Below are positions 14,765 through 18,602 of a stretch of DNA of 31,102 bases, one piece after another; positions within the stretch are counted from its first letter, which is position 1; every line of letters starts with the position of its first letter. Origin of the DNA: Candidatus Aenigmatarchaeota archaeon. GTDB taxonomy: Archaea > Nanobdellota > Nanobdellia > Woesearchaeales > ARS49. Below the pieces are notes generated by a model. That model saw only the letters and a program-made list of their open reading frames with translations. It was not told the origin of the DNA and did no database searches. Location of the stretch: assembly GCA_016198725.1 (NCBI GenBank), contig JACQIC010000078.1:1-31102 (forward strand), written 5' to 3'. The position numbers and the translations under genes were made by a program.

Positions 14765-15835
14765 TTAGGGTGTCTTCTGGAGTTCGTATTCTATTTGTTG
14801 TTGAAATCTTTCTCTGAGCTTGTACGTATTTCCGTGCAGGGCATATGCGTTCCAGCCTTGCAATACTTCAAGAACGTCCCATGCAGAAATAATTCCACAT
14901 TTATAATCAGCCAGTAATGCATCAAGTCTTGCGCGTATTTTTTTGAAATTGCGTGTTCTGACAAGTTTGTACTGGTAAAAAATGCGAAAACCAAGAAAGC
15001 TAACACCACGTCCCAATGGAATGATTTTGCATTTTGTAGGGTGGAGTTTGATTTTTAATGTCTTAATAAATTCCGTGATTTTTCTTTCATGTTCTTGTAA
15101 AGCTTTTTTTGAACGGTGGAGTATGACAAAGTCATCAACGTATCGAATATAGTATTTTGCTCGTAAGGTGTGTTTCACGAATTGGTCGAGCTCGTTCAAG
15201 TACACGTTTGCAAAGAACTGGCTCGTCCAGTTCCCCAGAGGCATGCCTTTGCCCGGAGTTCCTGAATCATAATTTTTAAGAACGCGCTGGACAAGCCAAA
15301 GAACGTATTCATCTTTTACGCGTTTTTTGATTATGCCGAGCAAAACAGCATGATCTACGGTTTCGAAATAGTGCCTGATGTCTGCTTTAAAGACGAAACA
15401 TTGAACAAAGTTTTTGTTTTGCGCACCGGCAACTTGTTTGCCATTTTGCGTTACTTTGCGCTTGAATTCATCAAAACGCTGAATAGCAGGAAGTGTGCCC
15501 TTTCCTGCACGACTTGCATAACTATCATAGATGAATAAAGGTTCAAAGATTGGCTTCAGGATGTTGACGAGAGCGTGATGAATGATGCGGTCTCGAAATT
15601 CGCTCACACAAATAACTCGTGTCTTTGGATCACGCAAAACAAATTTTCTTAAGGCGCGAGGTTTGTAAGTTTGTGTGCGCAATTCTTTTAGTAGATTGCA
15701 CAAATGAAGCTGCCAATGTTTATTGAATTCAATCATACAAGGATTGCCGAGCTTGCCTTGTTTTGCTTGTTCGTATGCGTGCTCAAGACTCTCAAAAGTG
15801 CATATGTTTTTCCAAAGATGGTTGTACGTTTTCAT
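14765..15835 (-). CDS. DGR-class reverse transcriptase
   Basis: PKTRVI..SEFRDRIIHHAL, FIYDSYASRAGKG, KADIRHYFETVDH, GMPLGNWTSQFFANVYLNELD (SQ motif typical of DGR RTs), YIRYVDD, FLGF. 356 aa with no maturase or endonuclease extension. Confidence 0.95.
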   Translation of the reverse strand: MKTYNHLWKNICTFESLEHAYEQAKQGKLGNPCMIEFNKHWQLHLCNLLKELRTQTYKPRALRKFVLRDPKTRVICVSEFRDRIIHHALVNILKPIFEPLFIYDSYASRAGKGTLPAIQRFDEFKRKVTQNGKQVAGAQNKNFVQCFVFKADIRHYFETVDHAVLLGIIKKRVKDEYVLWLVQRVLKNYDSGTPGKGMPLGNWTSQFFANVYLNELDQFVKHTLRAKYYIRYVDDFVILHRSKKALQEHERKITEFIKTLKIKLHPTKCKIIPLGRGVSFLGFRIFYQYKLVRTRNFKKIRARLDALLADYKCGIISAWDVLEVLQGWNAYALHGNTYKLRERFQQQIEYELQKTP

Positions 15836-15848
15836 CCAAATTAAAAGT

Positions 15849-16162
15849 CCTCGTAGCCGCTATTGACAATTGCGCTAAGGGTTAACCATTCAGAGAGCAG
15901 GCCAACTGTTGTTGATGTTGTCGTTGGCATTGATGTTGAACCTGTCGTTGTTGTTGATGTTCAACACCACGGCCCGCTCAGTAGCCCTGCCATCTCTTTG
16001 GCGTCACTGCCGTTTCAAACGTTCGCTCTGTTTTGAGGTACTGGCTGTCACGGCTGTATTTCATGGCAATGCCGCAAGCGCAGACTCTTGCCTTGATGGC
16101 AGGACGTGTGGTCTCCCTCTTGTCAAGACGCAGGTCATGCGTTATATGACAGCTACGAGGGC
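15849..16162 (-). ncRNA. putative structured DGR template RNA (5' leader + TR + spacer)
   Basis: TATA box at 16192-16183 and three mutually compatible long-range helices (16160-16149/15860-15849; 16126-16120/15869-15863; 16103-16095/15994-15986). Ends are inferred. Confidence 0.6.
15885..15984 (-). repeat. DGR template repeat (TR)
   Basis: Minus strand reads ...GTGTTG AAC ATC AAC AAC AAC GAC AGG TTC AAC ATC AAT GCC AAC GAC AAC ATC AAC AAC AGT TGG CCT GCT CTC TGA ATG GT, with 10 AAY codons. It aligns ungapped to 16247-16346. Confidence 0.95.
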
Positions 16163-16182
16163 GATAAAAACTCAAATACATT

Positions 16183-16192
16183 CATATAAAAA
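16183..16192 (-). promoter_or_regulatory. TATA box for the TR-RT transcript
   Basis: TTTTTATATG on the minus strand, about 23-32 nt upstream of the first leader helix at 16160. Confidence 0.55.
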
Positions 16193-16224: not shown

Positions 16225-17079
16225 TCAATTTTTCGGCGCGCCGACGACCACCCAGAGAGCAGGCCAACTGAGGTTGATGTAGCCGCAGGCATCGATGTAG
16301 AACCAGTCGCTGTCGTTGATGTACAACACCACGGCCCGCTCAGTAGATCTTGTGTTCAAAGCTGGAGCCCAAACTCTTACTTCTCTAAGTTCTCCATCAG
16401 AACAAGGTTTTGACAAGTATTGGAACACTGCGCCAGCTTCTTCATATCCTTCTCCAAACAATGCTTGCAATAATGGCTTGGCATTTTCAGGAATTTGTTC
16501 AACAGTGCCATGCTTTGAAGAAGATTGTTTTTTGGCCAATAGAATGTAGGCACATGAATCAGCAGAAGTTTGTTTGGTGAACTCTGGGACTTGCAAGGTT
16601 TCAGTACGTAACTGTCCATCAATGTCGCGATAAGAAAGTGTTGCTTCTGCACTATTTTCTGTTGGCACTTTATATTCGATTTTCATTCCAGTGTGAATAA
16701 CATATTGATTAAAAATATCTCGCAGCTTATCACGACATGCCACTACCTCTTTAGTTTGGTCCGAATGCATCAAATGACGAACAACCTGATAAAAAATCTT
16801 CAAGTTCATGACCACTTTTCCAGATTCTTGCTGATAAGCCTGCCATCCTGACACATTATTGCTCACAATATTATTGTTGTCTTTAATTACATTAGGAACG
16901 AGTTTTGCATTAATACTACTGCCGTTGTAAGCCAAATTTTGGAAAAAGTATTCACCATTCTGACACTCGACATTTACTTTGTCAAAGCTAAAAAGTATTT
17001 TCTCCAAGTCTTTCAGTTCATCAGTAAAAACTCTAATGGTTTGCCCAAAAAGTCTGAGTTCAGGATTAAGCTCTGACAT
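16225..17079 (-). CDS. DGR target protein with C-terminal variable region (probably C-type-lectin fold), 284 aa
   Basis: VR encodes ERAVVLYINDSDWFYIDACGYINLSWPALWV at the extreme C-terminus. ATG 17079 is preceded by GGAGG and overlaps the upstream ORF end. CLec fold is inferred from known DGR targets. Confidence 0.88.
   Translation of the reverse strand: MSELNPELRLFGQTIRVFTDELKDLEKILFSFDKVNVECQNGEYFFQNLAYNGSSINAKLVPNVIKDNNNIVSNNVSGWQAYQQESGKVVMNLKIFYQVVRHLMHSDQTKEVVACRDKLRDIFNQYVIHTGMKIEYKVPTENSAEATLSYRDIDGQLRTETLQVPEFTKQTSADSCAYILLAKKQSSSKHGTVEQIPENAKPLLQALFGEGYEEAGAVFQYLSKPCSDGELREVRVWAPALNTRSTERAVVLYINDSDWFYIDACGYINLSWPALWVVVGAPKN
16233..16244. other. GC-rich palindrome just 3' of VR (candidate retrohoming hairpin/cruciform)
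   Basis: TCGGCGCGCCGA is a perfect 12-bp palindrome 2 nt after the end of TR/VR homology and is absent after TR. Confidence 0.6.
16247..16346 (-). repeat. DGR variable repeat (VR)
   Basis: Offset +362 from TR. 12 core mismatches (6 A>T, 5 A>G, 1 A>C) change 10 codons; 2 further A>G at the 3' end (TGAAT vs TGGGT). Confidence 0.95.
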
Positions 17080-18565
17080 TTCCAAACCTCCAGTGCGGTT
17101 TTGTAAAGTAAAGATGCTCGCCAAATCTTTCAGTATCACCGCCAGAAGCCATAAATTCAAATCCGGCGGGAATGTTCAAATACCTCTGACCTTTCAGGTC
17201 ATAAAAGAAAGGATGATTGTCTCTAAGTTCAAAAAAAAGCTTTGCGAACCCGACAGCAAGATTTGCGAACAATTGCTTATTATGGTCGCGCATGTGAAGT
17301 TTTTCTTTCCGCTCATGCTCCACCATACTCTCAAAATCAGCGAGTTGTGTTTGCAATTCATTTCTCACAGATTCAAGTTTTAATCTTATTCTGGAGCATA
17401 CATCAATAAAGTAATTCTTGTCAATTTCAACATCACCGAAGTTTTTGAGTTCTGCATTTATTTCAGATTTTGGAAAATATCTTTCAGCGATTCGTACGGC
17501 ATTATTTGTAAGAGAACGGTGTACGGTTTGTCTGGCAGCGCCTGCTTCAGCCTGCTTCAGTTGCGCAAAAGAAAGAGAAACTCCTTCAATCTGCGCACTG
17601 TACTGAGCACGCTGTTTTGCTGTTTCCCTGTCAAATGCAGAAAGAGCATGTTCTCCTTCCATCCAAATATCCAGTGCAAGCACTGCTGTCAAATAATCAC
17701 GTTCAGTTGAATTCAAATCATGTGACTCACGTGATGGTTCAATGTTCAATCTTTTTTCATCCGCTGAAATTCCAACTCTTTTCATCATTTCACTACTATC
17801 TTTTGCTTTTTGGCTGGCAACGAAACCTCCAATAAGAACAACATCAAGCGGATAAACTTCCTGTAAAACACTTCTTAAAACACTGTCCTCTGAATAAAAA
17901 CTGTCTACAGCAGGATGAGCTTCGTTATTAATATACTTTAGAAAGTTGCGCGGGTCTTCACTTTTTTCGATTTTTTCAACTGCACAAATCGCCTTAATCA
18001 TATCATTGCCTTCAAAGACATGAACGTGAGAAAGTATATCAGGAACTTTGCCTCCACGTCTGAAATAGTCAAAAACAGCTTGTCCTTCAGCATTAAGTTG
18101 CAAGTAACCAGTAATATCTTCGGTATACGTTCTATTGGTGAACCAAAATTCAAAAATATCAGCGCCGTTGGCTAATTTTGGAACTGACTCAAAAAGAGCT
18201 GCGGCAGCAATGCAATGAAGAGATTCGCTTGCTGACAAAACACGCTCAGTAAAGCCTCCGCTAACTTTTGCAAACAATGATGACGAATTTTTTAATATTG
18301 CATACGCCACAGGATCGGGAAATACACGCACCACATTCACCAAACGTTCTGCATTACTATTTCCCAAAACTTTCAAAACATCCTTTCCATAAACGTACCA
18401 GGCAAGCAACATGTCTGAACTGTGTTCAAATTGCGAACCAAATTTTATCACATTATTCTGGCCAGCAAGTTTTCTGACTAAGACTTCAAGACCTTTAGGG
18501 CTTACTTTTTTGCCAAGTTTAGCATTTAACTGCAAGTTCAAATTAACCAAATCATCCATGACCAT
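17066..18565 (-). CDS. hypothetical protein (499 aa, helical/coiled-coil C-terminal half) coupled to the DGR target
   Basis: Long ORF with TTTATAAA at 18588-18581; start may be 18559. 14-bp overlap with the target gene. No family recognised. Confidence 0.75.
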   Translation of the reverse strand: MVMDDLVNLNLQLNAKLGKKVSPKGLEVLVRKLAGQNNVIKFGSQFEHSSDMLLAWYVYGKDVLKVLGNSNAERLVNVVRVFPDPVAYAILKNSSSLFAKVSGGFTERVLSASESLHCIAAAALFESVPKLANGADIFEFWFTNRTYTEDITGYLQLNAEGQAVFDYFRRGGKVPDILSHVHVFEGNDMIKAICAVEKIEKSEDPRNFLKYINNEAHPAVDSFYSEDSVLRSVLQEVYPLDVVLIGGFVASQKAKDSSEMMKRVGISADEKRLNIEPSRESHDLNSTERDYLTAVLALDIWMEGEHALSAFDRETAKQRAQYSAQIEGVSLSFAQLKQAEAGAARQTVHRSLTNNAVRIAERYFPKSEINAELKNFGDVEIDKNYFIDVCSRIRLKLESVRNELQTQLADFESMVEHERKEKLHMRDHNKQLFANLAVGFAKLFFELRDNHPFFYDLKGQRYLNIPAGFEFMASGGDTERFGEHLYFTKPHWRFGNVRA

Positions 18566-18602
18566 CTTAAAGATTACTATTTTATAAACCTTGTTGTTTT
18601 GA

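Follow-up and report, generated by a model that had tools for sequence, protein, structure and literature searches.

A putative scaffold or adaptor coupled to the lectin-fold target of an archaeal diversity-generating retroelement

The 31,102-nucleotide (nt) stretch of DNA analysed here, hereafter the window, is contig JACQIC010000078.1 of a Candidatus Aenigmatarchaeota archaeon (assembly GCA_016198725.1) and carries a diversity-generating retroelement (DGR). The gene of its variable protein, the DGR target, is preceded by a gene for a 499-residue (aa) protein that matched no known family. The two genes overlap, the pairing recurs in a second genome of the same taxonomic family, and in sister cassettes of that family the place of the 499-aa gene is taken by genes for a MoxR-like AAA_5 ATPase and a von Willebrand factor A (vWA)-type protein. 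We propose, as a judgement that stands close to the balance point, that the 499-aa protein serves the variable protein encoded behind it as a dedicated partner, a scaffold or adaptor that is probably non-enzymatic. The host genome, labelled G000, comprises 1.07 Mb in 97 contigs and is 92% complete; its size and its type of DGR give it a DPANN-like look, and the window is its contig C47. Read along the minus strand, the order is a TATA-like box, the 499-aa open reading frame (ORF), the target, an RT-16 RNA motif, the template repeat (TR) and the reverse transcriptase (RT). The features are as follows, with structural boundaries from AlphaFold2 (AF2) models and their predicted local distance difference test (pLDDT) values.

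18581 to 18588, minus strand: TATA-like box TTTATAAA, within the 37-nt gap before the 499-aa gene
17066 to 18565, minus strand: gene of the 499-aa orphan protein, from the ORF list; an alternative ATG at 18559 gives 497 aa
17711 to 18565, minus strand: residues 1-285 of the 499-aa protein, modelled as a helical N-terminal region (AF2, pLDDT ~40)
17234 to 17710, minus strand: residues 286-444, modelled as a long helical hairpin with a small insert (AF2, pLDDT mostly 70-94)
17081 to 17218, minus strand: residues 450-495, predicted small four-stranded C-terminal domain (AF2 and three-homologue alignment)
17087 to 17091, minus strand: Shine-Dalgarno sequence GGAGG of the target, made by Trp-Arg codons (TGG AGG) of the 499-aa gene
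17066 to 17079, minus strand: 14-nt overlap of the 499-aa gene end and the target start (from the sequence)
16225 to 17079, minus strand: DGR variable protein (target), 284 aa, predicted N-terminal helix and C-type-lectin-fold body (AF2, structure matches)
16984 to 17064, minus strand: target residues 6-32, predicted N-terminal helix outside the lectin fold (AF2, alignment)
16247 to 16346, minus strand: variable repeat (VR), from the TR/VR comparison
16183 to 16192, minus strand: second TATA-like box TTTATATG, ~20 nt upstream of the RT-16/TR RNA
15976 to 16164, minus strand: RT-16 RNA motif (RF03019), the template-RNA leader (71.6 bits; gathering score 50)
15885 to 15984, minus strand: TR, from the TR/VR comparison
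14765 to 15835, minus strand: DGR reverse transcriptase, 356 aa (RVT_1, E = 2.3e-24)

TR and VR differ at 14 positions, and 14/14 of these mismatches fall at TR adenines. With an RT matching RVT_1 in the cassette, the 284-aa protein is a true DGR target. Its AF2 model (pLDDT 85) displayed the fold of C-type lectins (CLec), with the best structural matches to a DGR variable protein of Nanoarchaeota (5ioo_B; Z 9.8, 166 residues aligned) and to TaqVP of Thermus (5vf4; Z 8.5). The model confirms the coupled gene as a standard archaeal CLec variable protein. The 499-aa ORF was confirmed as a real gene, and a second record of the identical protein comes from an independent read-archive assembly.

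The stop codon of the 499-aa gene (TAA, 17068-17066) lies beyond the ATG of the target (17079-17077), giving the 14-nt overlap reported in an earlier reading of the window from its sequence alone (the sequence-only reading). That reading had also placed the ribosome-binding site of the target inside the 499-aa gene; GGAGG was indeed found at 17091-17087, 7 nt before the target ATG and within the last codons of the 499-aa gene. The target gene has no intergenic space of its own. Upstream of the pair, TTTATAAA sits 15 nt before the first ATG (18565) and 21 nt before the second (18559). The spacing between TATA box and transcript start in archaea is usually ~25 nt. On this spacing the RNA would start near 18560 and the messenger RNA would be leaderless, which favours the second ATG; the resulting 497-aa start is the one used by one database record. 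The statement that this is the only evident TATA box holds for the two protein genes and fails for the cassette as a whole, since the TATA-like TTTATATG precedes the RT-16/TR RNA. A promoter of its own, distinct from that of the partner-target operon, is therefore probable for the template RNA. A scan for bacterial sigma-70 promoters gave matches at the shuffled expectation, and that consensus is irrelevant for an archaeon. Neither protein showed a transmembrane (TM) helix or signal peptide, as the sequence-only reading had stated: neither N-terminus is hydrophobic, and the 19-residue Kyte-Doolittle mean peaked at 1.39 in the 499-aa protein and at 1.16 in the target. Its proposal of probable co-expression and a functional tie between the two genes was supported, with the same coupling seen in the homologue described next.

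A homologue of the 499-aa protein, P0003, is encoded on a 3.3-kb contig (G008:C159, locus L002) of the same-family genome G008. The P0003 gene ends 3 nt before a 257-aa gene, whose Shine-Dalgarno sequence (GGAGA, 9 nt before the ATG) is again made from the conserved Trp-Arg codons (TGG AGA). The 257-aa gene was compared at the DNA level with a paralogue on another contig of that genome (G008:C1). Their bodies are ~45-75% identical in 45-nt windows and the VR flanks are fully identical (15/15 nt before and 41/41 nt after the core), while in the ~45-nt core between the flanks most differences fall on codon positions 1 and 2, apart from a single 3-nt indel. Homing from one TR leaves such a pattern; by this test the C-terminus of the 257-aa gene is a genuine VR and the gene itself a genuine DGR variable gene. 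A homologue thus lies directly upstream of a DGR variable gene; the sequence-only reading had held that homologues never found beside DGR targets would refute its proposal. Because DGR targets amount to a handful per ~1000 genes, a second adjacency by chance is unlikely. The G008 RT, 66% identical to that of the window, lies at the end of contig C89. Contig C159 ends 12 nt after the target and C89 ends inside the RT; an order of partner, target, (TR), RT would fit these ends, the join being presumptive. TTTATAAA also recurs before the P0003 gene (L002 931-938), just inside the called ORF. Since the box falls inside that ORF, the true start of the G008 homologue is probably Met18, near L002 979, and homology to the 499-aa protein begins at this Met18 as well.

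The genes flanking the pair are unrelated between the two loci. Upstream of the P0003 gene (L002 2-900) are a fragment of an AbiEii-like nucleotidyltransferase toxin and an AbiEi-like antitoxin gene. AbiEii/AbiEi is a known abortive-infection toxin-antitoxin system, and its presence hints at a defence-island setting for the G008 locus that is not shared by the window. The two coupled targets are not detectably homologous (hhalign probability 0.8%), so that the recurring unit is the partner rather than the whole operon, or the pair has been kept through extreme divergence. In G008, the paralogue without a partner gene lacks the N-terminal ~68 residues. A third and more distant paralogue of the G008 target (22% identity) was observed on G008:C3 (L022 5235-5897); the 3' part of its VR-like region is recognisable at 69% nt identity, and it may be decayed or differently templated.

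Database searches placed the 499-aa protein as an orphan of a very rare new family, in agreement with its earlier description as unknown. There was no family match in Pfam, NCBIfam, PHROGs or PADLOC (the anti-phage defence collection PADLOC-DB, at E ≤ 1), and Pfam gave no match at E ≤ 10 for any of the three homologues. A sequence-profile search of the PDB returned nothing usable (best hit Izumo1, E = 0.75, noise), and the ESM Atlas had no usable match for the whole protein or for residues 1-285. An exhaustive HMMER search over 1.84 billion representatives of ~15 billion proteins yielded three proteins besides the query's own record, of which two are credible relatives: P0002 (489 aa, E = 1e-40), known from ENA assemblies only, and P0003 (515 aa, E = 2e-15). 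The third, P0004 (5054 aa, E = 2e-12), was rejected, as nine weak matches of 2-8 bits each to a tandem repeat rich in Thr, Lys and Pro inflate its summed score. Low-scoring matches in G009, G034 and G244 (unpublished genomes) and in G267 were judged to be noise and set aside (E = 0.006-0.07 over 40-120 residues, one with eight stops). A word-indexed profile search returned the query alone and was uninformative on family size.

Full-length alignment of the three true members gave 26-28% identity; for P0003 and the 499-aa protein the value is 26% in the alignment and 28% by HMMER. The 52 invariant columns are dominated by Leu, Glu, Ala, Gly, Tyr and Phe, and none holds Asp, His, Cys or Ser. The lack of these invariant residues favours a non-enzymatic partner. 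Walker A, MIDAS and HExxH motifs were not found in the 499-aa protein. Its isoelectric point (pI) is 6.1, compared with 6.5 and 6.9 for the homologues; basic character is confined to the first 100 residues (pI 9.65), the remainder being acidic. The AF2 model, built on the three-row alignment, had an overall pLDDT of 59 and showed an all-helical protein in which a long hairpin of helices is followed by a small beta domain at the C-terminus. Residues 1-285 were modelled as helical but unreliably so. The hairpin that makes up most of the predicted C-terminal half consists of two ~60-residue helices (286-342 and 383-444), with one 10-residue block at pLDDT 68 in an otherwise better-scored region. 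The four predicted strands of residues 450-495 lie in one of the better-conserved stretches of the three homologues. A fold search of the predicted structure, the check put forward with the sequence-only reading, gave no specific match: Foldseek on this model (pLDDT 59) returned nothing at E ≤ 0.001, and VIA-align returned only generic helical bundles and coiled coils over residues 284-449, with Z at most 9.3, inside what the tool itself gives as noise for helical models. The known housekeeping fold that the same reading had named as counter-evidence did not turn up.

The position held by the 499-aa gene is occupied differently in the readable sister cassettes of the host family. There, the genes ahead of the targets encode a MoxR-like AAA_5 ATPase and a vWA-type protein, and the junctions are usually 4-nt ATGA overlaps. 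In another cassette of the same genome (G000:C46; L020 1037-8964) the order is AAA_5 (440 aa), two targets, vWA (636 aa), two targets, TR and RT, with 4-nt overlaps at both partner-to-target junctions and one N-terminal tag on all four targets. Further AAA_5/vWA-type target cassettes were found on G029:C26 and G029:C45; on G019:C26, hhalign supported the AAA protein at 97% and the vWA-like protein at 57% only. The 499-aa protein belongs to neither partner type. It has no G-x4-G-K-[ST] and no Pfam match as expected of a MoxR-like AAA+ (AAA_5) protein, and no D-x-S-x-S (MIDAS) and no Pfam match as expected of a vWA partner. Homology of its family to the AAA partner family A5 and to the vWA partner family A6 was considered and rejected, at an hhalign probability of 0.1% in each case. 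Nor does it qualify as a VMAP protein, given no Pfam family at E ≤ 10. The pair is directly flanked by an FAD oxidoreductase gene and the RT gene, with no adjoining AAA or vWA gene.

The G029:C45 cassette (L043 250-13704) holds ~15 tandem paralogous genes of 230-320 aa around one AAA_5 ATPase gene. These paralogues share a ~30-residue N-terminal tag, I-L-G-[DE]-K-K-K-x-x-F-D-[DE]-N-L-A-D, and some of them, not all, match the lectin-type DGR target. The arrangement resembles a large set of related 'tagged' clients sharing one ATPase.

The window's target is an ordinary member of a family of targets that occurs in the host's taxonomic family. From about residue 45 to its end, it is 29-37% identical to the full-length targets of G000:C46, G029 and G004; identity to three shorter paralogues is 18-23%, and the closest relative, P0007, is 46% identical. 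The first ~45 residues differ from those of the AAA_5/vWA-coupled relatives. Most AAA/vWA-coupled targets share the tag P-x-x-x-L-[DE]-x-L-A-x-K-F (the G029:C45 paralogues start differently), and this tag is absent from the window's target and from P0007. Near their N-termini, the two targets coupled to the 499-aa family have in common the motif N-x-E-x-[RK]-[LI]-F-G-[QK]-T-[IV]. Judged from these alignments, the lectin body looks like a reusable module whose N-terminus goes with the upstream partner.

In the mechanism that we propose, both genes would be transcribed as one short operon that has a TATA box to itself, and translational coupling of the second cistron to the first would lead to both proteins being made together in the cytoplasm. 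The orphan helical protein occupies the place held in sister cassettes by the MoxR-like ATPase and vWA module. From the gene context we predict a cytoplasmic complex of the 499-aa protein and the target, in which the N-terminal helix of the target might dock onto the partner, plausibly at the long hairpin or at the conserved C-terminal domain. The hypervariable tip would then be presented on, or signal through, the partner, and the orphan could serve as scaffold or output for whatever the tip binds. Several points weigh against the partner reading. The pairing rests on two genomic contexts, out of three homologues. The family is extremely rare, and the pairing could be a recent local accident persisting in two related lineages. 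The N-terminal motif of the two coupled targets is absent from P0007, the closest target homologue, so that its sharing may be due to chance. Finally, an enzymatic or nucleic-acid-binding fold may go unrecognised in the poorly modelled residues 1-285 (pLDDT ~40).

In the main alternative, which we regard as unlikely, the 499-aa protein would act as effector in a defence or conflict module made up of two genes. The cytoplasmic lectin would sense an invader molecule and activate the 499-aa protein, which would harm the cell or the invader, as a minimal counterpart of MoxR-vWA-VMAP systems. DGR targets have been described as putative sensors in such systems of multicellular bacteria (Dore et al. 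2024, PMC10907252, which refers to Kaur et al. 2020 for VMAP-type 'ternary' conflict systems), so that a sensor role of DGR-diversified lectin domains in conflict has a precedent as a proposal. The MoxR-like AAA and vWA partners of the sister cassettes and the position of the G008 homologue directly after the AbiEii/AbiEi pair point the same way. However, the 499-aa protein showed no toxin, nuclease, protease, TIR or pore-forming signature, and it has no invariant catalytic-type residue, PADLOC match or TM segment. The window's own neighbours do not form a defence island. That the gene is an unrelated passenger, for example a mobile-element remnant lying upstream of the target by accident, we consider improbable. 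Such a reading would suit a three-member family with no assignable function, for which no member was found in 400 genomes sampled across the order and no further locus in metagenome contigs (scanned twice), in viral contigs (scanned once) or, beyond the G008 contig, in a genome-contig scan. It does not readily account for the adjacency, orientation, promoter position and Shine-Dalgarno sequence in the last codons, all kept at two loci despite only 26-28% identity between the proteins and completely different flanking genes, and the region showed no compositional anomaly.

Besides a scaffold and an effector (for example in antiviral sensing), either of which may be right, the sequence-only reading had suggested a novel DGR accessory factor. 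In this last case the protein would replace Avd and aid the RT in mutagenic retrohoming, a role suggested by the lack of an avd gene in the cassette, by the occurrence of the protein beside DGR targets only, and by the predicted helical bundle or hairpin of its C-terminal half, Avd, a nucleic-acid-binding four-helix bundle, being helical too. We give this very little credence. Related RTs, counted at E ≤ 1e-40 to the window's RT, were present in 20 of the 77 genomes of the host family (~30 copies; the set includes the unpublished G465, G025 and G468), while the 499-aa family was found in only two of them, G000 and G008. The co-occurrence with avd-less DGRs that the sequence-only reading proposed to check thus went against the suggestion. 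G000 itself has three related RTs and a single copy of the 499-aa gene; the DGRs of the other two RTs, which are 74% and 63% identical to the window's RT, are without it. Furthermore, Avd has ~128 aa and a mean pI of ~9.5 (Wu et al. 2018, PMC5758913), compared with 499 aa and pI 6.1 here, and it is to the target, rather than to TR or RT, that the 499-aa gene is coupled. Outside the proteins, what is conserved in these avd-less elements is the RT-16 RNA leader. Because of its distribution, the 499-aa protein is not a general DGR accessory factor.

Compared with known systems, the locus most closely resembles the MoxR/vWA (VMAP-type) DGR cassettes. In both, a lectin-fold DGR protein comes right after a larger partner gene to which it is translationally coupled, and the sister cassettes of the host family pair a homologous lectin body with AAA_5 and vWA proteins. 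The window differs in that its partner has no P-loop, MIDAS or Pfam match to VMAP, AAA or vWA, in having one partner instead of two or three, and in the N-terminal helix of its target. On the best reading, the new family supplies an alternative partner to a cassette type that is already known. The likeness to Avd consists of a predicted helical protein in a DGR cassette that has no other accessory gene. The 499-aa protein is, however, four times longer, neutral to acidic, located upstream of the target rather than beside TR/RT, and missing from most related DGRs, lying next to one of the three RTs of its own genome. Wu et al. (2018) also described conserved hypothetical 'potential accessory genes' common to 3-4 DGRs and called such evidence thin, a caution on small sets that applies to the 499-aa family too. 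Compared by description, the 499-aa gene is like PAG1-4 and CH1 of that study (PMC5758913) in being a conserved hypothetical of few DGR cassettes with no recognisable motif, and unlike them in being tied to the target by coupled translation, across two non-homologous targets. Among solved structures, AvpA of Nanoarchaeota (PDB 5ioo; PMC5006420) comes closest to the target, the 499-aa protein having no part in this comparison, and the window's target differs from it by the extra predicted helix outside the fold.

For the function of the many cytoplasmic DGR variable proteins in DPANN archaea and candidate phyla radiation (CPR) bacteria, partner genes are the main handle. At this locus, a lectin body that is usually wired to a MoxR/vWA machine appears to be wired to a different protein without enzyme signatures, with the difference lying in the first ~45 residues of the target. 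The pair may thereby offer a clean two-protein system for how a hypervariable binder connects to an output. A bolder version, which we hold to be doubtful, is a minimal, ATPase-free hypervariable recognition module in which a lectin 'sensor' plugs via a swappable N-terminal helix into an orphan coiled-coil output device. On this bolder version, one lectin body would be re-used with interchangeable partners (MoxR/vWA and the 499-aa protein) within one 1-Mb archaeal genome, and the N-terminal tag would serve the DGR variable proteins of DPANN archaea as a general address. With three known members the family is not a general DGR component, and how widely it matters turns on whether other systems follow the tag-and-partner principle.

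Several features of the assemblies and of the genome setting were also recorded. In a genome of the same genus (G001), neither flanking gene was found and the related RT lies at a contig end. The RT-bearing contigs G432:C72, G451:C26, G451:C28, G008:C89 and G001:C102 stop inside the VR or no more than a few hundred bases from the RT, so that the TR/VR repeat seems to be a point at which assemblies break. With such breaks, contig-based surveys would under-count partner genes of DGR targets in these genomes. Some further RT-bearing contigs of the family, cut off directly at the RT, provided no surroundings for a target, and locus L053 of the unpublished genome G025 did not enter the analysis. 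Neighbouring genes in the window include glycosyltransferase, FAD-oxidoreductase and DUF362 genes. The third DGR RT of the genome (63% identical), on G000:C55 (L021 4613-7569), has no partner gene; close by is a candidate target of 274 aa that belongs to another family, with a QueG-like gene on the opposite strand between the RT and the candidate target.

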